Assembly (NCBI GenBank): GCA_035602245.1
Contig: DATNMO010000029.1
Coordinates: 3,965 to 67,964, forward strand
DNA: 64,000 nt
DNA from: Gemmatimonadales bacterium
GTDB taxonomy: Bacteria > Gemmatimonadota > Gemmatimonadetes > Gemmatimonadales > GWC2-71-9
Direction of reading: 5' to 3'
The position numbers and the translations under genes are program-made. Within the stretch, counting starts at the first letter, position 1. The number at the start of each line of letters is the position of its first letter. The notes under the pieces were generated by a model, which saw only the letters and a list, made by a program, of their open reading frames with translations, ran no database searches and was not told the origin of the DNA. Shown here one piece after another: positions 28,833-44,300 of this stretch.

Positions 28833-28848
28833 CGCTGTCCCGCTCCGT

Positions 28849-29493: not shown

Positions 29494-29951
29494 TCCGGGC
29501 GCGCCAGCAGTTGATACTTCAGCCGGACGACGTCCACGAACGCTGCGACGGCGTCGAGATCGGCAAACTCCATCCAGCAGTGGCGCACGCCTTCGAACCG
29601 GACGCCATCGCGCACGGCCTGCTTGATCGTGCGGGGCAAGCCGTTCGTCGCGCCGATTTCCTGCTCCTCCATCTCGGACAACACAAACGTGCCGCTCACC
29701 CCCGACTCCATCGGATGGAGGTAACCGAGCTTGCGTCCCCCGACCTCGTACATCCAGACCCATTTCCACGTGGTGCCGAGGTAGACGACCTGCTCCGTCA
29801 CATGCCGCAAGCTGCGCAATTCTTCACGGGCTTTCTTGAATCGTTGCGCGGCGCGCGGGGGAAGGTCGCGGACCGGCTGGTCGGCCTTGGGCCGCTGACG
29901 CGGGCTCAGATAGAGATGGGTGGCCCAGTACCCGGCGGGGGGTTTGGTCAT
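29490..29951 (-). CDS. Hypothetical cytoplasmic protein immediately upstream of actA
   Basis: This 153-aa ORF has no motif I recognise. Its amino-acid composition looks plausible. Its stop abuts the actA ATG. Confidence 0.45.
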   Translation of the reverse strand: MTKPPAGYWATHLYLSPRQRPKADQPVRDLPPRAAQRFKKAREELRSLRHVTEQVVYLGTTWKWVWMYEVGGRKLGYLHPMESGVSGTFVLSEMEEQEIGATNGLPRTIKQAVRDGVRFEGVRHCWMEFADLDAVAAFVDVVRLKYQLLARPE

Positions 29952-29975
29952 CGCGCCCCAATACTACAGGCGCGG

Positions 29976-31115
29976 TCAAGACCCCACGAGCCGGGCGGCG
30001 GCTCGGAATCGCCCAGGATCCAGCAGGCGCCCGCAAGACTGTTGCGGGACCGCCATGCGGCCGTCCTTCCCCATCGCCAGTTTGATGACGTCGCCGTTGC
30101 GGCCGTACCAGCGCGTCGAGGGCTCGAGGTCGGACGGGTACACGAAACGCGGTAGGGCCGCCGCGGCCAGCGCTGCCTGCGAGCCGATCCCCGATTCCGG
30201 CATCGTCCCGGCCCACAGCTGGGCTCCGTACTCCTCCGCCAAGCGGTAGATGCGGCACACTTCGCTCAGCCCGCCGACCCGCTGGACCTTGATGTTCCAG
30301 ACCTTGGGGCCGTCGAGCGCCATGATCTGCCGCGCGGCGCGCGCGTCGCGCAGCGTCTCGTCGAGACACACGGGCGTGCGCAGCGTGTGCGCGAGCCGGG
30401 CGTGGCCGACCAGCTCATCGGGGGCGAGCGGCTGCTCAATGTAGAGGAGGCCTGCGTCGTCGAGGCCACGGAGCGCCGCCTCGTCGCGGGGCCACTCATA
30501 GGCGCCGTTCGCATCCACCGTCAGCGGCAACGCCGTGCCCATTCCCGCCCGTGCCGCCGCGACCGCCGCCGCATCCCAGCCGGGCGCGACCTTGATCTTG
30601 ACGCGACGGTAGCCGCGCCGCACCGCCTCGTACACCCATTTGGTGAGCACCTCGGCCCGGTGATCCGGCGGGATGCCGAGCGCGACGCCGCAGTCCACCG
30701 CGCCGGCCAGGGTGGTCCCTAGGCGTTCGCCGAGGAGCGCCGCCAAGCCCACCCCGCGGGCGTGCGCCTCGAGATCCCACGCGGCAGTCTCGACGCCGGC
30801 GCGCGCGAACCAATTGCCGCGCACGCCGTCGCGCAAGACGCCATCTATCGCCTCGGGCGAATCGAACTCCTGCCCGACGACGCGCGGCAGCAATACCCGC
30901 TGGATCAAGTCGCGGGCGCCCGCCAGTGTTTCCTCGGAGTAGAACGGCAACTGAAACGGCGGCGACTCACCGTAGCCCACGTGGCCGGCGTCGTCGTGCA
31001 GCACGACGATGAGCGAACGGCGTTCCGCGATGGTGCCGCCCGAGATGACGAACGGCTCGATCAGCGGGAGGGCCAGCTCGTACAACTCAGCGCGAGCGAT
31101 CCGCATCGCGGGCAA
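29976..31115 (-). CDS. Enolase-superfamily enzyme, MLE subgroup (o-succinylbenzoate synthase / N-acylamino-acid racemase / dipeptide epimerase-like)
   Basis: The KxK motif is RRVKIKVAPG. The metal ligands lie in LTVDANGAY, LYIEQPL and VCLDETL. The second catalytic Lys is in VWNIKVQRVGG. Confidence 0.8.
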   Translation of the reverse strand: MPAMRIARAELYELALPLIEPFVISGGTIAERRSLIVVLHDDAGHVGYGESPPFQLPFYSEETLAGARDLIQRVLLPRVVGQEFDSPEAIDGVLRDGVRGNWFARAGVETAAWDLEAHARGVGLAALLGERLGTTLAGAVDCGVALGIPPDHRAEVLTKWVYEAVRRGYRRVKIKVAPGWDAAAVAAARAGMGTALPLTVDANGAYEWPRDEAALRGLDDAGLLYIEQPLAPDELVGHARLAHTLRTPVCLDETLRDARAARQIMALDGPKVWNIKVQRVGGLSEVCRIYRLAEEYGAQLWAGTMPESGIGSQAALAAAALPRFVYPSDLEPSTRWYGRNGDVIKLAMGKDGRMAVPQQSCGRLLDPGRFRAAARLVGS

Positions 31116-32199
31116 TGTCGAGAAAATGCAGCTCGCCTTCCCGGCGCTCCAGCGCGCCGCGGCCTTCGAGATCCAGCATCGTGGCGATCAGGCCGTGCTC
31201 AGGATGGAAAACGAGCTGGTGCAGCGCGCGCGCGGTGCGGGAGCCGTGCGTCGCGGAATACTCCTCGAGAGGGAGTTGAAAGAAGGTGTGGAGTTGGACG
31301 CTCGTGCAGCCGCGGCGGGCGTAGTCGACGATCATTCGGCCGGAGCAGATGTTGCCAGTGCCGGAGAGCTCTGGGAGCCCCGGGGTCAGCCGAGCAAGGA
31401 CCCGCAGGTTGCGATCACTCAGGTCGGGCCCGCCGTACGCCACCATTTGCTCTGGATCGAACAACCGATTGAAGACGACAAGCGCGTCCGCGCTCCCCGC
31501 TGCCGTCACCATCTCCAGCTGAAAAGCGTCGTCGAAACGAGCGTTCATCACCTTCACGGCGAGCCGCACCGGAGCGTGAGCCCGGATGCGCTCAGGCACC
31601 TCCCGCAGCCAGCGCAGGATCTGGGTCTTCTCGTCGGCCAGCGGATCCCCGGCGAGCGTAGGCGAGAAGTCCTTCTCGAGAAGTAGCGGAGGCTCGCCCC
31701 ATGCATCTGCGAGCCCTCGCGTAGTGAACGCGTACTCGGCATCCCGAAACGCCTCATCCAGCCGCGGCAGGTGATACTTCACCGACGGCACCGCGAGCAG
31801 CCGTGCCGCGCGGGTGAGATCGCGCGCCACGCGTACCAGGGCCAGGTAGTCCTCGAACGAGCGATCCCACCCCCTGCCCTTCCACGTCACCGTCCACCCC
31901 TCTCCGCGCCGCTCGACCTTCATTTTGGTTTCATGAATCGCCCACGCGGCCATCGATTGCGCGCCCGCCGCGTCCTGGGCGATGACGGTTTTCAGCACCG
32001 CGAATGCGAGACCGGCCTCCGCGTCAGTCTCGAGCTGACCCGCGTTGAGCGACAGCTGGCCAGATCCTTTGCCGATCGGATGCGGGATCGTCTCGCCGAG
32101 GTAACGCCCGGACAGGTCGATACGGTAGGTATCGCGCACGTGAGCTGGAAAATCGCGGGGTAGCTCCCGCTTGAACCGCTCGAAGTCTCTAGTGAGCAA
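31087..32199 (-). CDS. Dihydroorotate/dihydropyrimidine dehydrogenase-like TIM-barrel oxidoreductase
   Basis: IPHPIGKGSGQLS...FAVLKTVIAQD resembles the DHOD-like fold. There is no in-frame ATG near the 5' end, so I chose the TTG at 32199, which overlaps the upstream gene by 11 nt. Confidence 0.45.
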   Translation of the reverse strand: MLTRDFERFKRELPRDFPAHVRDTYRIDLSGRYLGETIPHPIGKGSGQLSLNAGQLETDAEAGLAFAVLKTVIAQDAAGAQSMAAWAIHETKMKVERRGEGWTVTWKGRGWDRSFEDYLALVRVARDLTRAARLLAVPSVKYHLPRLDEAFRDAEYAFTTRGLADAWGEPPLLLEKDFSPTLAGDPLADEKTQILRWLREVPERIRAHAPVRLAVKVMNARFDDAFQLEMVTAAGSADALVVFNRLFDPEQMVAYGGPDLSDRNLRVLARLTPGLPELSGTGNICSGRMIVDYARRGCTSVQLHTFFQLPLEEYSATHGSRTARALHQLVFHPEHGLIATMLDLEGRGALERREGELHFLDIARDADRSR

Positions 32200-33388
32200 A
32201 GCGGGAGAGCCGGAATTGCGGGTCCGGTGCCTCCCCGGTGAGTACCAGCCGAGCGACGAGCTCCCCCACCGCGGGGCCGTGCTTGAAGCCGTGCCCTGAG
32301 CCCCCGCCCACCAGCCACGTATTCGCCGCCGCCGGGTGCCGGTCGATGATGAAATGTTCGTCCGGTGACCCTTCGTACTGGCAGACGCGCGATTCCAACA
32401 GTGGAGCACCCTTCAATCCAGGAAAGCGGTACGCGAGGTAGTCGCGGGCAGTCTGTAGGCCCTCCGGGCTGGGAGTTCTCTCACCGTTCGTGGGATCGAA
32501 CACGGGCCCGCGGGTGTCGTCCGCAACCTTGAAGCCCCGCCACTCGTTGCCGGGAATACCGTACATGAAACGCGTGCCATGATCCGCCCAGACGGGCAGC
32601 GCCTCCTCCGTGAAGCGCCGGTCGCCGGGCGGCGCGCCGAAGAAGAACACTTCCTGGCGCGTGGCGCGTACGCGGTCGCCGATCACGTCGGGGAAGAGGG
32701 ACCCAAGCCAGGGGCCGCAGGCGAACACGAACCGGTCGCCCGTGAGGGTCGTGCCGTCGGACAGCGTCACGCTGCGAAGCTCGCCTCCCCGGGGGAGCAG
32801 GTCCGGTTGGACGGCGAGCTGGCGGTACTCGCCTCCCTCCGCGAGGAAGCCCTCGAGCACGGCTGCGCACGCCCGTCGCGCCGTGAGATAGCCGCCATCC
32901 TTCTCGAAGATGGCCCAGCTCAGTCGCTCGCAGTTGATCTGCGGGTAACGCCGCGTGACCTCGGCGGCCGTCAGCTCTTCGAACGTGACCCTCGCGTCCC
33001 GCAATACCGGGAGCGCCGCCTTCTCGTACTGGTCGTCGCTTTCGGCCAGCCACAGCACGCCGATCCCATGGTACAGCTGCCGGTGCCAGCGCCGCTCGTG
33101 CTCTTTCCAAAGGGTGAGCGCACGCGCCGCTAGGCGCGTATAGATCTCGCGGGGGCCATAGGTCGCGCGGATGACCCGCGTCTCGCCGCCCGAGCTCGCG
33201 CGGGAGTTGCCGGGCCCCCAGCCGTCGAGCAACGTGACGCGGGCGCCCCGGCGCCGCAGGTGGAGCGCGGTCCAGCCGCCGAACGCTCCCGCCCCAACCA
33301 CCACCACGTGCGGTTGCTTGCTCATGGGAACCAGGCCTCCGAGCGCGATGGCCGCGCACGATTGGAGAAATGAGCGCCGCTCTAGCAT
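32189..33388 (-). CDS. FAD-dependent oxidoreductase (DAO / sarcosine oxidase-like) with a Tat-type signal
   Basis: The N-terminus is MLERRSFLQSCAAIALGG. The FAD motif is VVVVGAGAFGGWTALHLRRRGARVTLLD. Confidence 0.8.
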   Translation of the reverse strand: MLERRSFLQSCAAIALGGLVPMSKQPHVVVVGAGAFGGWTALHLRRRGARVTLLDGWGPGNSRASSGGETRVIRATYGPREIYTRLAARALTLWKEHERRWHRQLYHGIGVLWLAESDDQYEKAALPVLRDARVTFEELTAAEVTRRYPQINCERLSWAIFEKDGGYLTARRACAAVLEGFLAEGGEYRQLAVQPDLLPRGGELRSVTLSDGTTLTGDRFVFACGPWLGSLFPDVIGDRVRATRQEVFFFGAPPGDRRFTEEALPVWADHGTRFMYGIPGNEWRGFKVADDTRGPVFDPTNGERTPSPEGLQTARDYLAYRFPGLKGAPLLESRVCQYEGSPDEHFIIDRHPAAANTWLVGGGSGHGFKHGPAVGELVARLVLTGEAPDPQFRLSRFAH

Positions 33389-34275
33389 GTGCCACGAGCC
33401 TCGCACACGGCCTGGCGCACGGCCTCCCGGTCGGCCGCCGGGAGTACCGGCCCCCAGGGATCGTCGCACGCTTCGTCCGGGATCACGCCATCCGCGGCAA
33501 GCGCCCAGAGCATGCGGCGAATGTAGCCTTCCATCGGGGGCACGAACGTCGACTGCGCAAAGGCGTCCAACTGCGTGGAGAGGCGTGTAAATGCGTGGGC
33601 GTCGCCGCTCGCGAACGAGCTCACGAGCGCTGCCTGCAAGTCCGTGAGCGCTGCCCCCATACCGATGAGCGCCGCGCGGGCGCCCAGCATGAGCGAGTAG
33701 CCGAGGAACCGGTCTTCGCCCGTGATGAGAAGCTTGTCCGGATGATCGCGCATCACCGCGACGATTCGCTGGAACGTCATCACGGAATCGAGCGTCGCGA
33801 CCTTGATACCGATCACGCCCGGCAGCGAGAGGATCGCGTGCAACGTGACATCGTCATAGGCTACTCCGCCTGCCGCTTCGTACAGGTAGAACGCGATGAC
33901 CGGCAGCTCCTGCGCCAACGCGTCATGATACGCGACCGGATCGTCGCGGTGCGGGAACGCGAGCAGGGCATCGGCCCCTCCCTGCTTCGCGTCGCGCCCC
34001 ATCGCGACCGCATTCGCGCCCGCAATGATCACCTTGTCCGGGAGGGCGGCGCGCCACGCGGCCAGCACGATCCGGCGCTGCTCGGCGGAGAGGTGTGGAC
34101 CTCGTCCCGTGTGAGCCCAGACGGCCACACCGGTGACCAGCTGACGCGCCATCCAGCGCGCATAGTCGCGCTGCGCCGCTTCGTCGATCGTTGAGCCACG
34201 GAACGGCACGGGGACGGCGGGAATCAGTCCCCATTCCAGACGGCGACGGACGGACGCACTGTCGGACGGACGCAC
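33382..34275 (-). CDS. Dihydrodipicolinate synthase (DapA)/N-acetylneuraminate lyase family class I aldolase-like protein
   Basis: GLIPAVPVPF... and IGIKVATLD (Schiff-base Lys context) support the family. The start is either the GTG at 34275 (4 nt after the upstream stop) or the ATG at 34305. Confidence 0.65.
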   Translation of the reverse strand: MRPSDSASVRRRLEWGLIPAVPVPFRGSTIDEAAQRDYARWMARQLVTGVAVWAHTGRGPHLSAEQRRIVLAAWRAALPDKVIIAGANAVAMGRDAKQGGADALLAFPHRDDPVAYHDALAQELPVIAFYLYEAAGGVAYDDVTLHAILSLPGVIGIKVATLDSVMTFQRIVAVMRDHPDKLLITGEDRFLGYSLMLGARAALIGMGAALTDLQAALVSSFASGDAHAFTRLSTQLDAFAQSTFVPPMEGYIRRMLWALAADGVIPDEACDDPWGPVLPAADREAVRQAVCEARGTC

Positions 34276-34279
34276 GGTC

Positions 34280-35053
34280 CTACGACGCCGCGAGGCGACG
34301 GACATTCTCGGACTCGATCGCGTTGCGCCGCTCGGGAGGCAGCTCGAGCAGGTCGAGCTTCGCGATGCTGTTTTCCGGAATCCGCAGCGGCTGCCCCGTC
34401 CCGAAGACGAATCGCTCGATCCCGACTGTCTCGAGCAGCGTCTCGAGATGGTCCTCGGGTGGACCCCAGATCCAGCAGATGTCCCACCAGATGCGCCGGG
34501 CCTCTTCGGGCGTAGAGCCGAAATGCACCTCTTCGACGAAGCCGCGATCGGCATGCGTGACGAGGAGACGCACATCCGCATCGCTGCGGATCAAGGCGCG
34601 GACGGCTGCCGCCGGGAGCTCGGGGACCCGGTCGTTGGGATGACGTTGGCGGCCATCCTCGAGGCGGACCGCGAGCAGCAACGGAATCCGCGCGGCACCG
34701 CAGGCGGCGGCCAATACGCGCATCTCCCCACCGGTGGGGTCGAGCCCCAGGTACAGCGGGTCGCAGCGCACGGCGGGCGCCCCGGCGTTGACCGCGTCCG
34801 CGAGCACCTGCTCCCACTGCGCGAGCGCCGGGTGAACGACCGGGACGGGTTTGAAGCGCCGCTCTGTGCGCGCGGTGTCGAGCAGCCACGCGTTTCCCTC
34901 CGTGGGGTCGCGCCAAAAGAGACTCGGCAAGTGTGAGATCCACGCGATGTCGATGTCGGCCCGATCGAGCGCCTTCGCCAACGCCTCCGGCGACGTGCCG
35001 GGGACTTTGCGCCACGGGTAGGCGCCCAGGAACGCGTTGACGTCAACGCGCAT
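34280..35053 (-). CDS. Amidohydrolase_2-like TIM-barrel protein with a degenerate metal site
   Basis: It begins MRVDVNAFLGAYPW where the upstream paralogue has IDVHAHF. The TGATG junction shares 1 nt with the upstream gene. Confidence 0.6.
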   Translation of the reverse strand: MRVDVNAFLGAYPWRKVPGTSPEALAKALDRADIDIAWISHLPSLFWRDPTEGNAWLLDTARTERRFKPVPVVHPALAQWEQVLADAVNAGAPAVRCDPLYLGLDPTGGEMRVLAAACGAARIPLLLAVRLEDGRQRHPNDRVPELPAAAVRALIRSDADVRLLVTHADRGFVEEVHFGSTPEEARRIWWDICWIWGPPEDHLETLLETVGIERFVFGTGQPLRIPENSIAKLDLLELPPERRNAIESENVRRLAAS

Positions 35054-35853
35054 CAATCGACCGGGAACGCGCCGCGCGGGAAGATGCGGGCGGCGTTCTT
35101 CCAGCGGATCATCGCCATCTCGTCCTTGTTGAGCAGCGTCTCGAGATAGCGGAGCTTGGCCCAGCCGGTGTCCATCGTGAGATCCGTGCCCCACAGCAGC
35201 CGGCTCACGCCGGCCGCCGCGACGCAGGCCTCGAGCATCCCGCCGTCCACGCCGCTGCCCGACAAGTCCACATATACGTTGGACACGTCAGCGACGGCAT
35301 GGAGCGAGTGCAGCCAGTCGCCGCCACCGCCGATGTGCGCCAGGATGAACGCGACGTCCGGGTGGCGCCGGGCCAGGGTGCACAGCTCGCCGGCATCCGA
35401 GGCTTCCTGGCCGGGCCAATCGCGGCGGCGGTGCTGCCAGACGTGCTGGAGCACGGGGACGCCCCGCTCCCCAGCCAGCACGCCGATCGGATCGAGCAGC
35501 GGATCGTCCGCGCGGCGGCTCGCCGCCAGCTTGATCCCGATCATTCCCGCGTCGAGGCAGCGGACGATCTCGGCGCGAGCGTGCGCGCTGTAGTTCGGAT
35601 TGACGCATACATATCCGCGGATCCTGGCAGGATGCGCCCGTTGCAGCACCAGCAGGGCGTCGTTCCCCGCGGTCACGTCACGCTGCGAGGGGAAGTAGAT
35701 GGGCGACGTCAGCCCCCAACTGCCGAGGATCGACGCCACATGGACCGAAATCCCGATCTTCTCCCCGGCCGCCAGCCTGCTGGCGTTGCGCTCGCGCCAG
35801 TCGGCGCGGGGGGTGCGGTCGTGAAGGAAATGAGCGTGGACGTCGATGAGCAT
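35053..35853 (-). CDS. Amidohydrolase family (Amidohydrolase_2 / ACMSD-like) metal-dependent hydrolase
   Basis: MLIDVHAHFLHD carries the HxH motif. Later His and Asp ligands occur in ILAHIGGG and WGTDL. Confidence 0.75.
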   Translation of the reverse strand: MLIDVHAHFLHDRTPRADWRERNASRLAAGEKIGISVHVASILGSWGLTSPIYFPSQRDVTAGNDALLVLQRAHPARIRGYVCVNPNYSAHARAEIVRCLDAGMIGIKLAASRRADDPLLDPIGVLAGERGVPVLQHVWQHRRRDWPGQEASDAGELCTLARRHPDVAFILAHIGGGGDWLHSLHAVADVSNVYVDLSGSGVDGGMLEACVAAAGVSRLLWGTDLTMDTGWAKLRYLETLLNKDEMAMIRWKNAARIFPRGAFPVD

Positions 35854-35963: not shown

Positions 35964-36536
35964 GTGACGCGATCGATGATCAGCCGGGTGAAGTACATTC
36001 TGCTCCAACCACGCATCAGTTGGAAGGAGATCGACCGCGAGTTCACGAAGCCCAGCGAGCTGTGGGGGAAATACATTCTGCCGCTGGCGGTGATCGGGCC
36101 GCTCTGCGGCACCATCGGCAGGGTGCTCTTCGGCGCGCGGATTCCCCTGACCAGCCTGACCAACCCCGTACCCCTCTCCACCGCGATCACGTGGGGCGTC
36201 GCTGCTTACGTGCTCTCGCTCATCGGCCTCTTCGTCACCGCGCAGATCGTCAATCTCCTGGCACCGGGATTCGGCGGGCAGAAGAATGACGTGCAGGCGC
36301 TGAAGGCGGCAACCTATTCCAGCACGGCGCACTGGATCGGCGGCGTGTTCACACTCGTCCCGGCGCTCGCGCTCGTGAGTCTGATCTTCTCGCTCTACAG
36401 CGTCTATCTGCTGTTCCTCGGGCTGCCGGTCGTCATGAAGGTGCCCGAGGACCGATCGATGGGATACACGGCGGTCGTCCTCATCGCGTCGATTGTCGTG
36501 TTCCTGATCTTGGGGGCGGTCCTCAGCGCCTTCTAG
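35964..36536 (+). CDS. Yip1 family membrane protein
   Basis: The GTG is preceded by GGAGGG. The N-terminus is VKYILLQPRISWKEIDREFTKPSELWGKYILPLAVIG, followed by 4-5 TM segments. Confidence 0.7.
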   Translation: MTRSMISRVKYILLQPRISWKEIDREFTKPSELWGKYILPLAVIGPLCGTIGRVLFGARIPLTSLTNPVPLSTAITWGVAAYVLSLIGLFVTAQIVNLLAPGFGGQKNDVQALKAATYSSTAHWIGGVFTLVPALALVSLIFSLYSVYLLFLGLPVVMKVPEDRSMGYTAVVLIASIVVFLILGAVLSAF

Positions 36537-37330
36537 GCCCCCCCGCGGAAAGCGGTGCGGGTCACCCCGCCCTCGCGGGCGAGCAACGCTGCCCCCCCGA
36601 GCAGCCCGGCCACGGCGAACGCCACCAGCGCTGCGATGTCGAGCGCCAGCGGCAGCTCGCCGCCGTAGCCCGCGCCCCGCCATCCGCCCAAGAGGGCGTG
36701 CTTAAGCAGATCGACTCCGTAGGCCAGCGGGTTGAGATACACGAGCGCCTGCAGCGCCGAACCCAGCCGGCGCACCGGGTAGAGCGCCCCCGAGAGAAAC
36801 AGCATCGGGAAGACCACGAAGTTCATCACGCCCGCGAAGTTCTCGATCGAGCGGATGCTCGCAGCCAGGACCAGCCCCAGCGCGCCCATCGCGAGACTCG
36901 ATAACACGACGCCCGCGAGAGCCAGGAGCAGCGACTGGGGGCCCGGCCACAGCTGCACGAGCGAGAGGAGAATCACACCGACCGCAACGGCCTGGGTCGT
37001 TCCGAGCAGGGTCGCCCCCAGGATTTTGCCGAGCGCGACCGTGCTGCGGCGAATGGGCGCCACGAGAACCATGCGCAGCACCCCAGCGTCGCGGTCCGTC
37101 ACGGTGGAAAGCGCCGCGAGCAGCGACCCGAACATCACGACCATGCCGAGCAACCCCGGCGCCATGTAACGCCGGTAATCGATCTCTCCCGCACCGGTGA
37201 AGACGGTCGCGAACCCGGCGCCGGCGAAGATCAGCCACACGAACGGTCGCGCCAGACTCGCCAGGACGCGACCCCGTTGTCGCCAAAAGCGCACCAGCTC
37301 GCGCACGACGATCCCGAATACCGGTCGCAT
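36533..37330 (-). CDS. ABC-2 type transporter permease
   Basis: MRPVFGIVVRELVRFWRQRGRV... is a typical ABC-2 N-terminus, followed by six TM segments. It starts 2 nt after the ATPase stop. Confidence 0.85.
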   Translation of the reverse strand: MRPVFGIVVRELVRFWRQRGRVLASLARPFVWLIFAGAGFATVFTGAGEIDYRRYMAPGLLGMVVMFGSLLAALSTVTDRDAGVLRMVLVAPIRRSTVALGKILGATLLGTTQAVAVGVILLSLVQLWPGPQSLLLALAGVVLSSLAMGALGLVLAASIRSIENFAGVMNFVVFPMLFLSGALYPVRRLGSALQALVYLNPLAYGVDLLKHALLGGWRGAGYGGELPLALDIAALVAFAVAGLLGGAALLAREGGVTRTAFRGGA

Positions 37331-37332
37331 CG

Positions 37333-38085
37333 TCAGGCCGCGCTCGGCTCGGCGAGCGGATGGCCGGTGCGCGCGAGAAACACCTCCTCGAGCGAATTCA
37401 CGGCCGCGGCCCGCTTGAGCTCGGCCGGCGTCCCCAGCGCGACGAGCCGCCCGCCGTCGATCACCGCGACGCGGTCGCACGGCTCCGCCTCCTCGACGTA
37501 GTGCGTCGTGAGGAAAACGGTGAGCCCGGACGCCCGGCGCAGCTGCCGGATCAGCTCCCACAACGAGCGCCGGGCGCGGGGATCGAGGCCCGCGGTGGGC
37601 TCGTCAAGGAACAGCACCCGCGGCTGGTGCAGGATGCCGCGGGCGACGTCGAGGGCCCGTCGCATGCCGCCCGACAGCGCGCGCACGGGATCGCGCCGCC
37701 GCTCGAGCAACCCGAATTGGCCGAGCAGCTCGGCAATCCGCGGGGCAGCCAGCCGGCCCGGCAGGCTCCACAGCCGCGCCGCGAAGTGGAGGTTTTCTTC
37801 CACCGTGAGATCGCGGTCGAGCGTCGTCTCCTGGAACACGAGGCCGATGCTGCGCCGAGTGCGGAGGTCGTCGCGCACGACGTCATAGCCGGCGACCCGG
37901 GCCGTGCCGCGCGTCGGCTTGAGGAGGGTGGCGAGCAGATGGACCGTCGTGGTCTTCCCGGCGCCGTTCGGCCCCAGGCAACCGAAAAACTCGCCTTCAT
38001 GCACGGCGAGGTCGAGCTTGTCGAGCGCGCGGATCGAGCCGAAATCTTTGCCGAGACCGCGGGCTTCGATGGCGGGTGCGGTCAT
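37333..38085 (-). CDS. ABC transporter ATP-binding protein (ABC-2 exporter type)
   Basis: The Walker A is GPNGAGKTT, the signature is LSGGMRR and the Walker B is VLFLDEPT. The ATG overlaps the pqqE stop (ATGA). Confidence 0.9.
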   Translation of the reverse strand: MTAPAIEARGLGKDFGSIRALDKLDLAVHEGEFFGCLGPNGAGKTTTVHLLATLLKPTRGTARVAGYDVVRDDLRTRRSIGLVFQETTLDRDLTVEENLHFAARLWSLPGRLAAPRIAELLGQFGLLERRRDPVRALSGGMRRALDVARGILHQPRVLFLDEPTAGLDPRARRSLWELIRQLRRASGLTVFLTTHYVEEAEPCDRVAVIDGGRLVALGTPAELKRAAAVNSLEEVFLARTGHPLAEPSAA

Positions 38086-39206
38086 TCCTTCGTGGCGAGC
38101 GCGCGCGAGGCGGGCGCCGCGCGGTAGGTCCACTCTTCGGGCGTCACTTCCGCCGCAGCGGCCCGCTCGACCTCGGCGATGGTCGCGTCGATCAAGTGCC
38201 GGCGCGGCGAGAGCGAACACACCGGATCGGTGACGCCCGCGTCGCCGGCGACGAGGAACGCCTGGCAGCGACAGCCACCGAAATCGACCTCCTTACGCGG
38301 GCAGGACCGGCACGGCTCGGGCATCCACGAATCGCCGCGGAAGCGGGTGAACGCGTCCGATTCCTGCCAGATCCACTCCAGCGACCGCTCGCGCACGTTG
38401 TCGAACCGAAGCGTCGTGATGCGTCCCGCCGCGTGGCACGGCCACACCTCACCGGCCGGCGTCACCGTCATGTACGAGCGCCCCCATCCCCCCATGCACG
38501 GCTTGGGGAACTGCTCGTGATAGTCGGGGAGGACCCAGACGATCTCCAGCCGGCTCCCGAGGCGCTGGCGCTCGCGCTGCACGACGGCCCACGCCGCCTC
38601 GAGCTGGGCCTTTGTAGGCATCAGGGTTTCGCGGTTGTGGAACGCCCAGCCGTAGAACTGCGTGTTGGCGAGCTCGATGCGCTCGGCACCGAGCGATTCG
38701 GCAAGCCGGATGAGCGCCTCCACCTGATGCAGGTTGCGGCGGTGCAGGACGACGTTGACGGTGAGGGGGAAGCCAAGCTCGCGCGTGTAGTGGTAGGCGG
38801 CGATCTTGTCGCGGTACGACTTGGTCCCGGCGATTTCGTCAGACAGCTCAGCGTCGGCGCCCTGGATGCTGATCTGTACGTGGTCGAGGCCCGCCTGCTG
38901 CAACGCGGTGAGCCGGTCCTTCGTCAGCCGATACGCCGACGTGATCAACGAGGTGTAGAGTCCGAGCCCATGCGCGGTACGGACCAGCTCCTCCAGGTCG
39001 GCACGGAGCGTCGGCTCGCCACCCGACAACCCGAGCTGCAGCACGCCGAGGGCCTTGGCCTCACGGAAGACGCGGCACCATTCCTCGGTCTTCAGCTCCT
39101 GCTTGAAGCGGCCGCCCGCGAAATCGAGCGGATTAGAGCAGTACGGGCATTGGAGTGGACACTTGTAGGTCAGCTCGGCAAGCAGCCACAGCGGCTTAGG
39201 GTCCAT
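38082..39206 (-). CDS. pqqE: PQQ biosynthesis radical SAM protein PqqE
   Basis: PLWLLAELTYKCPLQCPYCSNP is the CxxxCxxC motif. A SPASM-type Cys-rich C-terminus is present. The gene follows pqqD. Confidence 0.9.
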   Translation of the reverse strand: MDPKPLWLLAELTYKCPLQCPYCSNPLDFAGGRFKQELKTEEWCRVFREAKALGVLQLGLSGGEPTLRADLEELVRTAHGLGLYTSLITSAYRLTKDRLTALQQAGLDHVQISIQGADAELSDEIAGTKSYRDKIAAYHYTRELGFPLTVNVVLHRRNLHQVEALIRLAESLGAERIELANTQFYGWAFHNRETLMPTKAQLEAAWAVVQRERQRLGSRLEIVWVLPDYHEQFPKPCMGGWGRSYMTVTPAGEVWPCHAAGRITTLRFDNVRERSLEWIWQESDAFTRFRGDSWMPEPCRSCPRKEVDFGGCRCQAFLVAGDAGVTDPVCSLSPRRHLIDATIAEVERAAAAEVTPEEWTYRAAPASRALATKE

Positions 39207-39465
39207 AGAGCACCAGTCCCTTCGCCGCGAGCCCGTCCAGGAGCGTGCAGACGTCCGGCTCCAGGCCGGTCGCTCCGTACCGTTGCTCGAGGGTCGCCAC
39301 GATGGCGGCGAGCGAACGAACCCCATCGCACAGCCCCAGGATCTCCGCTCCAGTGGGGTTCAGAATGACGAGTCCCTCGGGATACAGCAGGACGTGGCGT
39401 TTGCGGACATCGTCCCATTGCAGCCGCGCCTTCGCCGCGATCCGGGGCACGGCCGCCGCGCCCAC
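39196..39465 (-). CDS. pqqD: PQQ biosynthesis peptide chaperone PqqD
   Basis: This ~89-aa protein reads ...LLYPEGLVILNPTGAEILGLCDGVRSLAAIVATLEQRY. The start is the GTG at 39465 (or the TTG at 39474). It overlaps pqqE by 11 nt. Confidence 0.85.
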   Translation of the reverse strand: MGAAAVPRIAAKARLQWDDVRKRHVLLYPEGLVILNPTGAEILGLCDGVRSLAAIVATLEQRYGATGLEPDVCTLLDGLAAKGLVLYGP

Positions 39466-39470
39466 GCTAC

Positions 39471-40232
39471 TCAAGCGTCCGACCCCGGGAGCGACCCTCG
39501 CGACACCGCGTCGAGCAGGCACCACAGCACGTCGCACTTGAAGTCGAGCGCCGCGACGGCCCGGTCCTGCTCCGCGCGACTCCGGAACCGCTGGGTCACG
39601 AGCGCGAGCGCGTACGCCGCATCCCGCGGCGCCTGCGTCAGTCGATTCCTGAAGTATTGGAGGCCGTCGGGATCGACCCACTTGTAGTGGCTGAGGATCG
39701 CCGCGAGCCGCTCCTGCACGATGAGCGGCGCGAACAGCTCGGTCAGCGACGCGGCGACCGCCTCGAGCCACGGCCGCGTTCGACAGAAGTTGACGTAGGC
39801 GTCTACCGCGAAGCGCACGCCCGGCAGCAGTCGGCGTTGCGTCTGCAGATCGTCGCGCGATACCCCCATCGCCTCGCCGAGGCGCAGCCATGCCTCGATC
39901 CCACCCTCCTCGCCCGGCCGGCCGTCGTGATCGACGATCCGCTGTATCCACTGTTGGCGGACTTCACGCTCGGGGCAGTTGGCAAGGATGAGTGCGTCTT
40001 TGATGGGGATGTTGACCTGATAGTAGAAGCGGTTCGCGACCCAGAGCTGGAGCTCGGCGCGCGACAGCTCACCGCGGTGCATTCGTTGGTTGAAGGGATG
40101 CAGATGATGGTAACGGCGCTCCAGTACGGCGCGCAGCCGGTCCACTAGCTCGCCCTCTGCTGCGCCCTGTGACAAAAGGGCCGGGTTCGTCACCCGGCCC
40201 TTCTGTTGGCTACGACGGCTCGACTCACGCAT
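39471..40232 (-). CDS. pqqC: Pyrroloquinoline-quinone synthase PqqC
   Basis: YHHLHPFNQRMHRGELSRAELQLWVANRFYYQVNIPIKDALILANCPE...WIQRIVDHDG supports the call. An alternative GTG start at 40193 would give a more typical N-terminal length. Confidence 0.9.
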   Translation of the reverse strand: MRESSRRSQQKGRVTNPALLSQGAAEGELVDRLRAVLERRYHHLHPFNQRMHRGELSRAELQLWVANRFYYQVNIPIKDALILANCPEREVRQQWIQRIVDHDGRPGEEGGIEAWLRLGEAMGVSRDDLQTQRRLLPGVRFAVDAYVNFCRTRPWLEAVAASLTELFAPLIVQERLAAILSHYKWVDPDGLQYFRNRLTQAPRDAAYALALVTQRFRSRAEQDRAVAALDFKCDVLWCLLDAVSRGSLPGSDA

Positions 40233-40299
40233 TACCGGCGTAAGCGCCGACTTCCATCCCCAGCTCGACCACTTCGTACTCAGGCTTGGTCCACGACAT
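40225..40299 (-). CDS. pqqA: PQQ precursor peptide PqqA (24 codons; absent from the ORF track)
   Basis: My own translation of the minus strand gives MSWTKPEYEVVELGMEVGAYAGNA-stop. It has the W-x-K-P N-terminal motif and an E-x-x-x-Y pair (E16, Y20). GGAGG lies 7 nt upstream of the ATG. It sits immediately 5' of pqqC. Confidence 0.8.
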   Translation of the reverse strand: MSWTKPEYEVVELGMEVGAYAGNA

Positions 40300-40353
40300 T
40301 GAGAGCCTCCAGAAACAATGGTTGATCAACCGTTGCCAACCGCCAGCATATGA

Positions 40354-40369
40354 AGCACGCTGCGTGCCA
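40354..40369 (-). promoter_or_regulatory. Sigma-54 (-24/-12) promoter upstream of pqqA
   Basis: The minus strand reads TGGCACGCAGCGTGCT. Against the consensus TGGCACG-N4-TTGCW it matches 11 of 12 defined positions. The element lies about 55 nt upstream of the pqqA ATG, directly downstream of a sigma-54 activator gene. Confidence 0.6.
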
Positions 40370-40496
40370 GCCCTGACCGTGCCGATGCAACATCACAACC
40401 CATTGCTCTGCGTACGATTATCCCATTTTCGTAGAGATGGACCACTCCCAGCCCGAGGGCTAGTGCTGAGGCTTTTCACCCAGTACGTGGGTGGAA

Positions 40497-41918
40497 TCAC
40501 CCACCCAGCCCGAACTTCTTCAGACGATAGCGCAGTGTATCCCGCGAAATCCCGAGACGCTGGGCCGCCTTCGTCTGGTTCCCGCCGGCTTCGCGTAGCG
40601 CGCGTTCGATCATGGATCGTTCCCACTGCCCCAGGTCGACCCCCTGCGGCGGCAACGCCGGCGCGCCGGCTGCCGCTCCCGGTTCGAGCGGCGGGCCGTC
40701 GGCCGTGGTCAGCGCGTCCGCGTCGATCGACTCGGCACCTCCCGGGCTCGTCAGCGAGAGATGCGCGACGTCCAACGCGGGCCCGCGACTCCACAGGACG
40801 GCTCGCTCGATGACGTGGCTCAGCTCGCGCACGTTCCCCGGCCAGGGATAGGCGAGCAATAGATCGCGCGCCGGGGCGCTGATCTCTCGCACGGTCTTCC
40901 CGTACTTGGCGTTGAAGCGCCCCAGGAAATGCTCCGCCAGCTGGAGCACGTCCTCCCCGCGCTCGCGCAGCGGCGGCACCTGCAGGACAATCACCGCGAG
41001 GCGGAAATAGAGATCATTCCGGAACCGCTCCCGCCGCACCTCGCGCTCGAGATCGCGGTTCGTCGCGGCGATGATGCGCAGGTCCACCTTGCGCTCGCGG
41101 ACGCTCCCCACGCGCCGCACGGTGCGCTCCTCGATCGCTCTGAGCAGTTTCCCTTGCAGCGAGAGGTCGACGTCGCCGATCTCGTCGAGAAAGAGGAATC
41201 CGCCCTCAGCCGCCTCCATCAGACCGGGCTTCGACTCCTTGGCATCCGTGAACGCGCCGCGCTCGTGGCCGAACAGCTCGGACTCCATGAGGTTCGCGGG
41301 AAGCGCGGTGCAGTTGACCTCGATGAACGGCCGCGTGGCGCGGGGACCGGAGGCGTGGATCGCGTGGGCCAGGAGGCCCTTGCCCGTGCCCGTCTCGCCC
41401 GTCAGGAGCACCGGGGGCGTCTCGTCGAGCGCGGCGATCTGCCGTGCCCGCTCGAGGACCGCGCGGATCGCGGGCGACGCGCCGATCATGCCCGCGAACC
41501 CGACGTCCCGCGTCGCGCGCTGGCGGTAGTAGGACAGCTCCTGCTTCAGCAGGCGATCCGCACGCGCCCGCTCGGCGAGGAGCTTCAGCTCCTCCAGGTC
41601 CACCGGCTTCTTTACGTAATCAAAGGCGCCGAGCTTCACGGCTTCCACCGCACCCTCGATCGTGCCGTAGGCCGTCACCATGACGACCGGGAGCACCGGA
41701 TCGAATTCGCGGATGCGCTTGAGCAGCTCGATGCCGCTCATGCCCGGGAGACGGACGTCGGCAAATACCACGTCCGGCTGCACGCTGGCGAGCAGCTCGA
41801 GCGCCTTCTCTCCGGTGCTCGCGACCGCCGTCTCGTAGCCGTGGTCCGTGAGGTAAGCCTGGGCGGATCGCGCCAGGGTGTGTTCGTCATCGACGATCAG
41901 CACAGTGGCTCCGCTCAT
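40497..41918 (-). CDS. NtrC-family sigma-54-dependent response regulator (REC - AAA+ - Fis-type HTH)
   Basis: The REC domain is VLIVDDE...DVRLPGMSG. The AAA+ domain has GETGTGKGL and ESELFGHERGAFTDA (a GAFTGA variant). The C-terminal HTH is QTKAAQRLGISRDTLRYRLKK. There is an ATGA overlap with the kinase gene. Confidence 0.9.
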   Translation of the reverse strand: MSGATVLIVDDEHTLARSAQAYLTDHGYETAVASTGEKALELLASVQPDVVFADVRLPGMSGIELLKRIREFDPVLPVVMVTAYGTIEGAVEAVKLGAFDYVKKPVDLEELKLLAERARADRLLKQELSYYRQRATRDVGFAGMIGASPAIRAVLERARQIAALDETPPVLLTGETGTGKGLLAHAIHASGPRATRPFIEVNCTALPANLMESELFGHERGAFTDAKESKPGLMEAAEGGFLFLDEIGDVDLSLQGKLLRAIEERTVRRVGSVRERKVDLRIIAATNRDLEREVRRERFRNDLYFRLAVIVLQVPPLRERGEDVLQLAEHFLGRFNAKYGKTVREISAPARDLLLAYPWPGNVRELSHVIERAVLWSRGPALDVAHLSLTSPGGAESIDADALTTADGPPLEPGAAAGAPALPPQGVDLGQWERSMIERALREAGGNQTKAAQRLGISRDTLRYRLKKFGLGG

Positions 41919-43375
41919 GCGCCGTTCGCCACCGGCAGCCAGATCCGTACGGTGGTACCGCGGGCGACCACGCTCGCGATCTCCAGGCGGCCTCCCGCCT
42001 CTTCGACGTAGCGTTTGGCGATCGCGAGTCCGAGACCGGTGCCCTCAGGCCGCGTGGTGACGAAGGGCTCGCACACGGTCGGGAGGATCTCGGCGGGAAT
42101 CCCGGAGCCCGAGTCGGCAATCTCGATGGTAACTCCTCCCCCGTCCGAGCCGGTCTCGCCCGGTTCGGTCCGGGCTGCGATCGCGAGGCGTCCTCCCTCG
42201 GGCATGGCGGCGAGCGCGTTGGAGACGAGCTCCGTCAATGCCTGCTCGAGACGCATAGGGTCCACCAGAATCTCGGGGAGCCCCGCCGGAAAGCTGAGCT
42301 CCAGCTCGACGCGACGCTCGTGGAGCAGCGCGGAGAAGCCCGAGAGCGCCCCATCCACCAGCGCTCGCGCGCTGTCGCGCAGCGGATGGAAGGAGGCGGG
42401 CCGGGAGAACGCGAGCAAGTGGGCAATCCGGAGATCGAGCCGGTCCACCTGCTCGACGATGGCGTTCAGCTGCTCGCGTGCCGCGGGGACCTCCACTCGG
42501 TGTCGCGCGAGCTGCGCCGCGGCGCGCAGGCTCGCGAGCGGATTACGGAGGCCGTGCGCCACCGCCGCCGCCATCTGCCCGATCGAGGCGAGCTTCTCGG
42601 ACTGCACCAGCCGCGCGCGCGATTGGCGCAGCTGCTCCGTCATCTGGGCGAAGGCGCGCGCCAGGTCGCCAATCTCGTCACGGGATCGCGGCTGCATCAC
42701 ATGGTCCAGGTCGCCCGCACCCACGACGGCCATCGCTTGCCGCAGCTCGTTGAGCGGGCGCACCAGACTGCGTGAAATGAGCCACGACGCGACGAGGCCG
42801 GCGACGGCGGCGACCGCGATGATCACCCACAGAATCCGTCGTTCTGTCTCCACGATGCCGCGCACCTGCGCGAACGCTCGCTGCACGCTGAACACACGCG
42901 CCTGGCGATAGATCTCGCGGTTCACCTCCGCCAAGGCGGGCTGCAGACGCTCCACCAGCTCGTGGCGCGCGGTGCGATAGGCCGCGTCGCGCTGCCCCGC
43001 GTCGTAAAGCCTGAACACGCGATTGGCAACCGCCCGGATCTGGCCTTCGATATCGCGGACGCCGGTCGCGACCTTCATTTCATCGGAGGGAAGCCCGGCG
43101 GTCCAGCGCTCAAGCCAATAGTCCACGACCTGTTCGGTGAGCGGAAATTCCTGCTTCGCCCTGAGGTCTCCACCGAGGTAGCGCCAGACCACCTGGGATT
43201 GGTTGAACATGGCGTTTTCCACTTCGGCGTAGGTGCGCGAACGCGCCAGGCGTTGGCCTAGCTCCTCCAGCGTCGCCTGCTCGAGCGCGTTGCTCCGAAC
43301 CGCCTGGATCCCGACGAGCAAGGCAGGGACAACCATGAGCGAGAACCCCAGCAGCAGCTTGCGCTGGAGTGTCAC
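41915..43375 (-). CDS. Sensor histidine kinase (periplasmic/helical sensor - HAMP - HisKA - HATPase_c)
   Basis: The GTG at 43375 lies 7 nt after the pqqB stop. There are two TM segments. The H-box is SIGQMAAAVAHGLRNPL. The ATP-binding region is DSGSGIP...GTGLGLAIAKR. Confidence 0.85.
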   Translation of the reverse strand: MTLQRKLLLGFSLMVVPALLVGIQAVRSNALEQATLEELGQRLARSRTYAEVENAMFNQSQVVWRYLGGDLRAKQEFPLTEQVVDYWLERWTAGLPSDEMKVATGVRDIEGQIRAVANRVFRLYDAGQRDAAYRTARHELVERLQPALAEVNREIYRQARVFSVQRAFAQVRGIVETERRILWVIIAVAAVAGLVASWLISRSLVRPLNELRQAMAVVGAGDLDHVMQPRSRDEIGDLARAFAQMTEQLRQSRARLVQSEKLASIGQMAAAVAHGLRNPLASLRAAAQLARHRVEVPAAREQLNAIVEQVDRLDLRIAHLLAFSRPASFHPLRDSARALVDGALSGFSALLHERRVELELSFPAGLPEILVDPMRLEQALTELVSNALAAMPEGGRLAIAARTEPGETGSDGGGVTIEIADSGSGIPAEILPTVCEPFVTTRPEGTGLGLAIAKRYVEEAGGRLEIASVVARGTTVRIWLPVANGA

Positions 43376-43382
43376 GCGCGCC

Positions 43383-44300
43383 TCACAGTTCGAACTCCAT
43401 GCCGTCCTCTCCCACCTCGAGGCCAGCTGCCTCGACCTGGGCCCGCTCGGCCGAAGTGCGGCACAAGATCGGATTGGTGTTGTTGATGTGCACGAGCACG
43501 GTCCGCTTCGCGCCGGCGCGCGGCAGCAGCTCGATGCCCCCGGCAGGCCCGCCCACCGGAAGATGCCCCATCTCGCGCGCCGTGGGCGCGTCCACCCCCG
43601 CTGCCCGCAACTCGTCGTCCGCCCAGAACGTGCCGTCGAACAGCAGCACATCCGCTCCGGTCGCGGCGGCGCGGACCGCATCGTCGACCGCACCCGCCGT
43701 GGGAATATAGGCGAGCGTTCCCCCCGTCCGCTCATCGCGCAGCCGCAGGCCGACGTCGAACGTTGCCGCCGTTGCCCCGCGGGCGTAGCGGGGCGGCCGG
43801 CGCGCAACCGGAAACGCGGTGCACTGAACGCCGAGCGACTCGCCCTGCGCGTTGGTGAGCTGGAGTGGCCGGCCGCCGGGGCCGCCGTCGGGGATGATGC
43901 GGGCGTCCACGCCCGCATACGCGGCGAGCACGCGGTACAGCGGCCACTCCGCGCCGAGCAGCGCGGCGACGCCCGCCGGCGCGTAGACGGGCAGCGTAGC
44001 GGCGCTCTCGCGCAACAACAAGAGGCCGAGCGTGTGGTCGATCTCGCCATCGGTGAGCATCACGGCCTGAATGGGCGTGCCGCGGGCGCCCCGCGGCCAC
44101 AGCGCCGGGTGAGCGGCGAGCTGCACGCGCAGGTCGGGCGAGGCGTTGAGGAGAATCCAGCGCTCACCATCCGCGCTCACGGCGACCGACGACTGAGTGC
44201 GCCCGGCGCCGTCGGCGCGCGCCGCACGGCAATTGGCGCAGCCGCAGTTCCACTGCGGCAGCCCTCCACCCGCCGCCGACCCGAGGATGATCACTCGCAT
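43383..44300 (-). CDS. pqqB: PQQ biosynthesis protein PqqB (MBL-fold)
   Basis: MRVIILGSAAGGGLPQWNCGCANCRAAR... is the typical PqqB N-terminus, and ...VLVHINNTNPIL is present near the C-terminus. Confidence 0.9.
   Translation of the reverse strand: MRVIILGSAAGGGLPQWNCGCANCRAARADGAGRTQSSVAVSADGERWILLNASPDLRVQLAAHPALWPRGARGTPIQAVMLTDGEIDHTLGLLLLRESAATLPVYAPAGVAALLGAEWPLYRVLAAYAGVDARIIPDGGPGGRPLQLTNAQGESLGVQCTAFPVARRPPRYARGATAATFDVGLRLRDERTGGTLAYIPTAGAVDDAVRAAATGADVLLFDGTFWADDELRAAGVDAPTAREMGHLPVGGPAGGIELLPRAGAKRTVLVHINNTNPILCRTSAERAQVEAAGLEVGEDGMEFEL

Follow-up and report, generated by a model that had tools for sequence, protein, structure and literature searches.

An ABC-2 transporter gene pair coupled to pqqE in a soil Gemmatimonadales bacterium: a candidate exporter of pyrroloquinoline quinone

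Pyrroloquinoline quinone (PQQ) is synthesised in the cytoplasm, but its site of action is the periplasm, and microbes share it as a public good. By which transporter might it cross the inner membrane? The question is raised by a 64,000-nucleotide stretch of contig DATNMO010000029.1 (hereafter the window, meaning the whole stretch that was analysed) from an uncultured soil Gemmatimonadales bacterium, in which the genes for an ATP-binding cassette (ABC) ATPase and an ABC-2 permease directly follow pqqE at the end of a PQQ biosynthesis cluster. Export of PQQ is the best reading of this pair, and we assign it a probability of roughly 0.5, with PQQ as the presumed substrate. As the initial annotation had supposed, the searchable literature names no established inner-membrane PQQ exporter. 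Cytoplasmic synthesis followed by transport to the periplasm has been described, the secretion work cited there being an omics screen in Gluconobacter (PMC12124388), and the one explicit proposal concerns a differently built protein of Methylorubrum extorquens AM1, MexAM1_META1p2359, which the cells need to grow on methanol and for which a role in PQQ export was suggested (PMC7391723). Our literature search found no follow-up of that idea.

The genes at the distal end of the cluster are as follows.

38082..39206, minus strand: pqqE, radical SAM/SPASM PqqA peptide cyclase (TIGR02109, 526 bits against a cut-off of 381)
37333..38085, minus strand: ABC ATPase of 250 amino acids (PF00005), its ATG overlapping the pqqE stop (ATGA)
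36533..37330, minus strand: ABC-2 permease of 265 amino acids with six transmembrane helices (PF01061, 122.7 bits), starting 2 nucleotides (nt) past the ATPase stop
35964..36536, plus strand: convergent Yip1-family gene, overlapping the permease stop by 4 nt

The sequence places pqqE, the ATPase gene and the permease gene all on the minus strand. In the minus-strand reading (...AAGGAATGACC...), the pqqE stop TGA occupies 38084-38082 and the ATPase ATG occupies 38085-38083; pqqE thus ends (...GAAGGAATGACC...) in a 4-nt ATGA overlap with the ATPase start at 38082-38085. The ATPase stop TGA at 37335-37333 is followed by CG and then by the permease ATG at 37330, leaving a 2-nt spacer (TGA-CG-ATG). 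The same boundaries were obtained in independent gene calls on four public contigs carrying the same DNA. The overlap of the convergent Yip1 gene with the permease stop makes the permease gene the final one of the unit. Sequence prediction found no sigma-70-like promoter in the region 36000-40700, and a scan of this region found 2 terminator-like sites against 2.1 expected by chance, with just one weak 5-bp stem, inside the ATPase gene, on the operon strand. The initial annotation had reported that the ATPase ATG overlaps the pqqE stop (38082..38085) and that the permease begins 2 nt after the ATPase, and direct reading confirms both. It had also placed the exporter pair at the distal end of the pqq operon, joined to it by translational coupling, a view that a promoter or terminator between pqqE and the ATPase gene would contradict; none is predicted there, and the overlap, the last-gene position and the conserved overlap of -4 nt described below all support it. 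We infer that the pair is co-transcribed with the pqq genes. A lone ATGA overlap is commonplace, and what exceeds chance is the conservation of this overlap among relatives.

The conservation was examined by searching 185,579 species, each represented by a single genome, with a permease alignment, and the best 80 of the 532 relatives found were mapped with the window proteins. The carriers found were all uncultured metagenome-assembled genomes (MAGs), the nearest loci all belonged to soil Gemmatimonadales, and the names of the nearest database proteins assign them to Gemmatimonadetes or Gemmatimonadales MAGs. Among these best 80 relatives, the order pqqC-pqqD-pqqE-ATPase-permease was found in every Gemmatimonadales locus (permease 64-89% identical) with sufficient upstream DNA, and all 42 of the Gemmatimonadales loci holding both genes share a pqqE/ATPase overlap of exactly 4 nt. 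The next tier, at 40-47% identity, comprises Burkholderiales, Rhodocyclaceae and Betaproteobacteria MAGs, a Gammaproteobacteria MAG and two Candidatus Entotheonella genomes; in these loci pqqBCDE lies directly upstream of the pair, and the 4-nt overlap recurs in 13 of the 17 proteobacterial or Entotheonella loci with both genes. With five exceptions among the Gemmatimonadales, proteobacterial and Entotheonella loci, the ATPase and permease genes are spaced by -7 to +5 nt, and on further contigs independent, Pfam-labelled gene calls gave the order pqqA-B-C-D-E-ABC_tran-ABC2_membrane. Relatives at 32-38% identity (Bacillota, Acidimicrobiales, archaea and others) were without pqq genes. Co-occurrence with pqq genes outside the window is therefore clearly positive in Gemmatimonadota, Pseudomonadota and Candidatus Entotheonella. 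Where the pair is present in Gemmatimonadales, identities to the window proteins are 70-89% for the ATPase and 64-89% for the permease, compared with 78-88% for PqqE; judged by sequence identity, the pair is as conserved as the Pqq enzymes.

The link to pqq genes is kept in three arrangements, with the pair after pqqE, after pqqA alone or upstream of the cluster. The second was found in a gammaproteobacterial MAG (L049, 7440-9545), in which divergently oriented genes for a sigma-54 regulator and a kinase are followed by a sigma-54-like promoter element (TGGCAC...TGC), then by pqqA with its hairpin and finally by the two transporter genes, pqqBCDE being absent from the 19 kb available; the third was found in a distant Gemmatimonadota genome (L072), in which the pair lies ~6 kb upstream of pqqABCDE. 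Two sister loci of L049, L052 and L050, carry the pair without a detectable pqqA, the L050 contig ending 233 nt upstream of the pair, and the neighbours of the pair in L049 and L052 include nothing PQQ-related apart from pqqA.

It is conceivable that the pair is a general efflux pump unrelated to PQQ that was inserted by chance after pqqE and travels with the cluster. ATGA overlaps are common in operons, the best match of the ATPase is the DrrA drug-efflux subfamily, and the pair has been lost from some loci without visible change to what remains, all of which would suit such a pump; on the other hand, the link persists at 40% permease identity in three phyla and three arrangements, the sequence conservation equals that of the Pqq enzymes, and the DrrAB-like pairs, which have no pqq neighbours, fall into a group of their own at 100% support. 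We regard a chance passenger as very improbable.

What kind of transporter do the two genes encode? The ATPase translation has all motifs intact (Walker A GPNGAGKT, VFQE at the Q-loop, LSGGMRR, Walker B LFLDEP and TTH at the H-loop) and scores 103 bits against PF00005; the solved domains nearest to its nucleotide-binding domain are those of ABCA1/3/4/7. Its top curated family is drrA (TIGR01188; 294.5 bits, below the cut-off of 312.45), followed by PedB (TIGR03864; 241.7 bits, below 302.25). The ATPase aligns only to positions 1-219 of the 302-position DrrA model and thus lacks the C-terminal domain. This holds for the pqq-linked ATPases of Gemmatimonadales in general, which are 241-256 amino acids long and without the ~60-amino-acid C-terminal extension of DrrA-type ATPases. 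Those of Proteobacteria and Entotheonella are 307-319 amino acids long in 20 of the 21 readable loci (L048-L069) and have a DrrA-like extension; PedB proteins are short (242-258 amino acids). The permease scores 122.7 bits against PF01061 (ABC2_membrane; cut-off, 26.9), and its top curated family is PedC (TIGR03861; 162.1 bits, below the cut-off of 241.35), with drrB (TIGR01247) at 159.4 bits, below 223.05. The Burkholderiales and Entotheonella pairs likewise fall below every curated subfamily cut-off.

An AlphaFold2 model of the permease (predicted local distance difference test score, 86.9; predicted template modelling score, 0.86) matched ABCG25, ABCG2, ABCH, KpsM and NosY in Foldseek with E values of 1e-5 to 1e-6, and the model thus has the type V (ABC-2/ABCG-like) exporter fold. 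The solved type V structures that it matched are all exporters or non-importing machines. No PedA1-type binding protein was found in the window or in any of ~170 loci by tblastn with the Thioclava and Azospirillum PedA1 proteins, and the gene calls of the window and its relatives contain no substrate-binding protein gene near the pair; the only binding protein in the window is of family 5, encoded at 49937-51379, 12 kb off, beside a binding-protein-dependent permease gene. With an intact ATPase, a predicted type V fold and no binding protein nearby, the pair is built like an exporter. From the conserved coupling, a linkage to pqq genes that withstands rearrangement, this architecture and a cytoplasmic product that is needed in the periplasm, we infer that the pair exports PQQ.

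The points that weigh against PQQ export concern loci that lack the pair, PQQ producers elsewhere and the kinship of the pair with known transporters. In a metagenome scan with PqqE, which yielded 80 loci, those with a PqqE at least 70% identical to that of the window and at least 900 nt of downstream sequence were counted (n = 49). The pair directly follows pqqE in 39 of them; in the remaining 10, pqqE runs straight to the convergent Yip1 gene and the pair is absent. L096 shows the same clean absence, with pqqE followed by convergent Yip1. The loci lacking the pair share an otherwise identical neighbourhood (kinase, regulator, pqqA-E, Yip1, two amidohydrolases and a DHDPS-family gene) and are listed here.

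Loci without the pair in an otherwise same neighbourhood: L096; L101-L103, L108, L112, L123, L134, L145, L154, L155

In addition, L068 (9985-10330) holds an in-frame remnant in which the first 8 ATPase codons are fused to the last ~110 permease codons, and in L041 (9957-10640) the permease is disrupted near the first helix, possibly by an assembly error. In the next PqqE group (56-63% identity), the pair was found in none of 10 loci. There is thus a natural presence/absence polymorphism, with the pair missing in ~20% of close, otherwise syntenic relatives, and the absences and remnants indicate that the pair is a common accessory module and not an obligatory one. The idea that the pair and Yip1 form one variable unit was rejected, Yip1 being equally diverged (37-44% identity) with and without the pair.

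To our knowledge, the pqq operons of the classical producers (Klebsiella, Pseudomonas, Gluconobacter, Acinetobacter and Methylobacterium) are without such a pair, and Escherichia coli equipped with foreign pqq clusters still supplies PQQ to the periplasmic glucose dehydrogenase and the medium. Since the pair is dispensable and classical producers are without it, another route of PQQ export must exist. On this view the pump would boost or secure export as an accessory and is not an indispensable step of the pathway, and the pair is at most a lineage-specific, dedicated export solution. Horizontal transfer of whole clusters may also inflate the apparent independence of the three phyla, and the public sequencing runs found to contain the window sequence are DNA metagenomes only, with no RNA among them.

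The kinship of the pair leads to the chief rival explanation, namely that it is a working counterpart of PedBC/LutEF that moves a metal or metal-chelator (lanthanide or calcium) for PQQ-dependent dehydrogenases, with the binding protein encoded elsewhere or unneeded. For PedA1A2BC of Pseudomonas putida and LutAEF of Methylorubrum extorquens, published genetics assigns lanthanide uptake, not PQQ export (PMC6839425; PMC7391723). On our reading, the selective effect in the published Ped genetics argues against the Ped system being a PQQ exporter (PMC6839425; PMC7391723). True Ped-type clusters, consisting of binding protein, YVTN propeller, ATPase and permease genes beside PQQ-dependent dehydrogenases, were found on Thioclava, Azospirillum and Sinorhizobium plasmids. 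In neighbour-joining trees (the only tree method used) of the ATPase and permease with 100 bootstraps and DrrAB-like pairs as the outgroup, the PedBC proteins of these clusters grouped with the pqq-linked pairs and were separated from DrrAB-like pairs in 100 of 100 bootstraps. The core Gemmatimonadales, the Proteobacteria with Entotheonella, and PedBC, which is monophyletic by itself, were each recovered in 100 of 100, in addition to the single locus L072. The branching order inside this group is unsupported: monophyly of the pqq-linked pairs apart from PedBC, suggested by the first trees, was dropped at 17-18% bootstrap support. Seven permease residues (R28, W32, F67, N164, N170, F171 and Y184) that differ in the outgroup are common to the pqq-linked permeases and PedC.

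To these shared, otherwise clade-specific residues and the common tree group, the metal-transport explanation can add that PedC tops the permease scores and PedB comes second for the ATPase, that the Gemmatimonadales ATPase and PedB are both short (242-263 amino acids) and without the C-terminal domain, and that a PedA2-like YVTN propeller is encoded downstream of the pair in one Burkholderiales subgroup. The scores of the window proteins are, however, far under the cut-offs (162 against 241 and 242 against 302 bits), whereas the proteins of true Ped clusters, used as positive controls, all exceeded them (PedC of Thioclava, 399.2 bits; binding protein, 465; propeller, 516). The window and all the loci lack a PedA1-type binding protein (TIGR03863), and no PedA2-type YVTN propeller was detected in the window by tblastn with the Thioclava and Azospirillum PedA2 proteins. 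The genes lie within a biosynthesis operon, joined to pqqE and not beside a dehydrogenase gene; L049 ties the pair to pqqA alone; and the solved type V fold matches include no importer. Taken together, metal transport by this pair seems unlikely.

A further explanation keeps the link to the pathway and changes the cargo: the pair could export another pathway-derived compound, such as PqqA fragments, a reactive intermediate or a side product, serving clean-up or self-protection in the manner of the immunity pumps encoded in clusters for other peptide-derived natural products. The linkage and the exporter architecture serve this explanation as well as they serve PQQ export, the link to pqqA alone in L049 would suit a peptide-related substrate, dispensability would suit a protective accessory, and no PqqF/G-type peptidase was found among the window open reading frames (ORFs) scanned. 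Short peptides are, however, normally cleared by cytoplasmic peptidases, the transporter carries no peptidase domain, and there is no evidence of toxic by-products from the PQQ pathway. A by-product pump explains less than PQQ export does, and we hold it to be improbable.

PQQ export thus remains the preferred reading, and the rest of the cluster indicates how the exporter might be produced. Upstream of pqqE the following features were identified.

43383..44300, minus strand: pqqB (TIGR02108, 359.7 bits against a cut-off of 245; gene call with PF12706)
41915..43375, minus strand: sensor histidine kinase (HAMP-HisKA-HATPase) of 486 amino acids (Pfam and NCBIfam matches; gene call)
40497..41918, minus strand: sigma-54-dependent response regulator (REC, AAA+ sigma-54 activator and Fis-type helix-turn-helix domains; PF00072, PF00158, PF02954), AtoC/NtrC-like
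40354..40369, minus strand: putative sigma-54-type -24/-12 promoter element TGGCACGCAGCGTGCT, ~55 nt upstream of the pqqA ATG
40225..40299, minus strand: pqqA, precursor peptide of 24 residues, MSWTKPEYEVVELGMEVGAYAGNA, with an E-x3-Y motif (sequence reading)
40172..40206, minus strand: hairpin followed by UUUU, attenuator- or terminator-like, 3' of pqqA (folding and shuffles)
39471..40148, minus strand: pqqC (TIGR02111, 322 bits against a cut-off of 240); start uncertain, gene callers giving 40193 or 40232
39196..39474, minus strand: pqqD (TIGR03859, 86 bits against a cut-off of 46)

PqqB, PqqC, PqqD and PqqE all exceed their equivalog cut-offs and PqqA has the E-x3-Y motif, making this a canonical PQQ biosynthesis cluster; the PqqA peptide family is present in 30+ related loci. 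The initial annotation had listed the cluster as pqqACDE, of which all four genes are present, but the list was incomplete, pqqB at 43383-44300 having been overlooked. Its further statement that the window contains no pqqF/G-type peptidase agrees with our scan, in which no M16 (PqqF/G-type) peptidase was found among the window ORFs tested, small ORFs not being exhaustively covered. No quinoprotein was found among the window ORFs tested. The pqqB gene of the window is displaced upstream of the two-component genes and ends 7 nt before the kinase start; the same position is seen in L041, the closest relative of the window, and most relatives have the usual order pqqA-pqqB-pqqC (compare L005-L040). 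This position is a local rearrangement joining pqqB with the regulator genes.

A histidine kinase gene adjoins the pqq genes in most Gemmatimonadales loci. The sigma-54 element TGGCACGCAGCGTGCT is the sole match in the window, compared with 0.03 expected, and a TGGCAC-N5-TGC element is found upstream of pqqA in loci with the kinase and regulator (among L005-L047 and L049) and is missing in all eight Gemmatimonadales loci without them. The sequence evidence suggests that the pqq operon is transcribed from a sigma-54 promoter controlled by the neighbouring kinase and regulator. The hairpin after pqqA has a 15-bp, GC-rich stem and a U-tract (-34.3 kcal/mol, z = -4.7; 0 of 200 shuffles fold as well). 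It is kept in all Gemmatimonadales loci, analogous hairpins occur 3' of pqqA in proteobacterial loci, and it is probably an attenuator that makes the pqqA message outnumber those of the downstream genes.

In the mechanism that we propose, the sigma-54 promoter, controlled by the adjacent kinase and regulator, would drive pqqA, and part of the transcripts would pass the hairpin into pqqC, pqqD and pqqE. Ribosomes ending pqqE would then restart on the overlapping ATPase start and subsequently on the permease, and the exporter would be produced together with the enzymes of PQQ synthesis. It would be a homodimeric type V (ABC-2) ATP-driven exporter consisting of two ATPase and two six-helix permease subunits without a binding protein. 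Its cargo would be finished PQQ, a small cytoplasmic tricarboxylate, or a late product of the pathway, moved over the inner membrane; exported PQQ would load periplasmic quinoproteins or be released. Periplasmic XoxF3 quinoproteins are carried by Gemmatimonadetes (PMC10875860).

Several further features of the neighbourhoods were recorded. The pair is not beside a PQQ-dependent dehydrogenase gene in the window and is so in the related Gemmatimonadales genome L011 (10776-13361), where genes for a methanol/ethanol-family quinoprotein (466 bits; cut-off, 480) and a cupredoxin begin at the permease stop. In L070 (1176-4926), an S9-type peptidase gene and a quinoprotein gene follow the permease. 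The W-D-x-x-G pattern, which covers the lanthanide-type WDxDG, had no match in the quinoproteins of L011 and L070. Burkholderiales-type clusters (L051 500-5530, L061 19-2690 and L088-L093) contain genes upstream of and divergent from pqqA that encode a prolyl aminopeptidase-like hydrolase (TIGR01249, above the cut-off), a long TonB-family protein and a PAS histidine kinase; in clusters lacking PqqF/G, the hydrolase is a candidate for the peptidase that processes PqqA. Six of the loci scanned for PqqA have an additional copy of pqqA upstream, in inverted orientation. In the Burkholderiales subgroup mentioned above (L059, L061, L063 and L067; e.g. L061 7284-10182), genes for a multicopper oxidase and the YVTN beta-propeller are located directly 3' of the permease; this propeller, with 224 bits against the TIGR03866 cut-off of 287 and an identity of 31-35% to PedA2, hints at a bridge to Ped-type systems. 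Two database proteins, P0339 (505 amino acids) and P0357 (455 amino acids), join PqqE domains with an ABC_tran domain; because the pqqE and ATPase frames differ, these fusions are likely frameshift or gene-call artefacts. Downstream of Yip1 in the window, the minus strand of 24515-35853 carries a conserved run of genes for two amidohydrolase_2 proteins, a DHDPS-family protein, a flavin adenine dinucleotide amine oxidase and an enolase-superfamily racemase/cycloisomerase, continuing with a cytochrome c7-like, molybdopterin oxidoreductase and NrfD set; the whole run has no evident tie to PQQ.

If the proposed function is correct, the pair would be the first transporter assigned to the crossing of the inner membrane by PQQ, and it could raise yields in industrial PQQ production. 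Judged from gene context, it is the best genomic candidate so far for the exit of PQQ from the cytoplasm. An operon-encoded transporter kept in three phyla makes PQQ export experimentally approachable, and the presence/absence polymorphism in soil Gemmatimonadales is a ready-made natural comparison. The pair also sheds light on the PedBC/LutEF lanthanide transporters, since it shows their closest relatives to be without a binding protein. PQQ-associated ABC-2 transporters as such are known from PedBC/LutEF; an ABC-2 pair inside a pqq operon, and the binding-protein-free version coupled to pqqE across three phyla in particular, was not found described in our literature search.

Among known systems, MexAM1_META1p2359 was proposed as a PQQ exporter by the same argument, that of a transporter with no periplasmic binding component, but it is a fused ATPase-membrane half-transporter encoded outside the pqq operons, and the basis of the proposal was a growth phenotype and not gene context (PMC7391723). 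The daunorubicin exporter DrrAB is also a two-gene ATPase and ABC-2 permease system inside the cluster whose product it supposedly exports; the window pair differs in scoring below both DrrAB cut-offs and in having an ATPase without the C-terminal domain, and DrrAB-like pairs form the outgroup in the trees. CcmAB and NosFY resemble the pair in an ABC-2 architecture serving the maturation of periplasmic redox enzymes, with NosY among the fold matches and weak CcmB (PF03379) matches in the proteobacterial pqq-linked permeases, but the similarity is distant and the partners and cofactors (haem and copper) are others, leaving an analogy of role only. ABCG25 and ABCG2, type V transporters that export small molecules of anionic or aromatic nature in eukaryotes, match the permease model best in structure (E about 3e-6; query-normalised template modelling score about 0.65), and they show that the fold can export small carboxylates, e.g. 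abscisic acid; these are fused eukaryotic ATPase-permease proteins with 15-20% identity and without an evolutionary or genomic link to PQQ.

The closest likeness is to PedBC/LutEF, which share with the window pair the order of one ATPase gene followed by one ABC-2 permease gene, a genomic tie to PQQ systems, the same fully supported tree group, derived residues and a short ATPase without the C-terminal domain. The window pair differs in being without a binding protein and a YVTN propeller, in scoring well below the family cut-offs and in residing inside a biosynthesis operon coupled to pqqE, whereas the Ped/Lut genes lie beside a dehydrogenase gene; Ped/Lut systems are assigned to lanthanide import, whereas export would be expected for the window pair. 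A tentative proposal, to which we give somewhat less than even odds, is that the pqq-linked pairs are both a dedicated, operon-encoded family of PQQ exporters and the binding-protein-free core from or alongside which PedBC/LutEF arose, all being members of one PQQ-specialised group of ABC-2 transporters.

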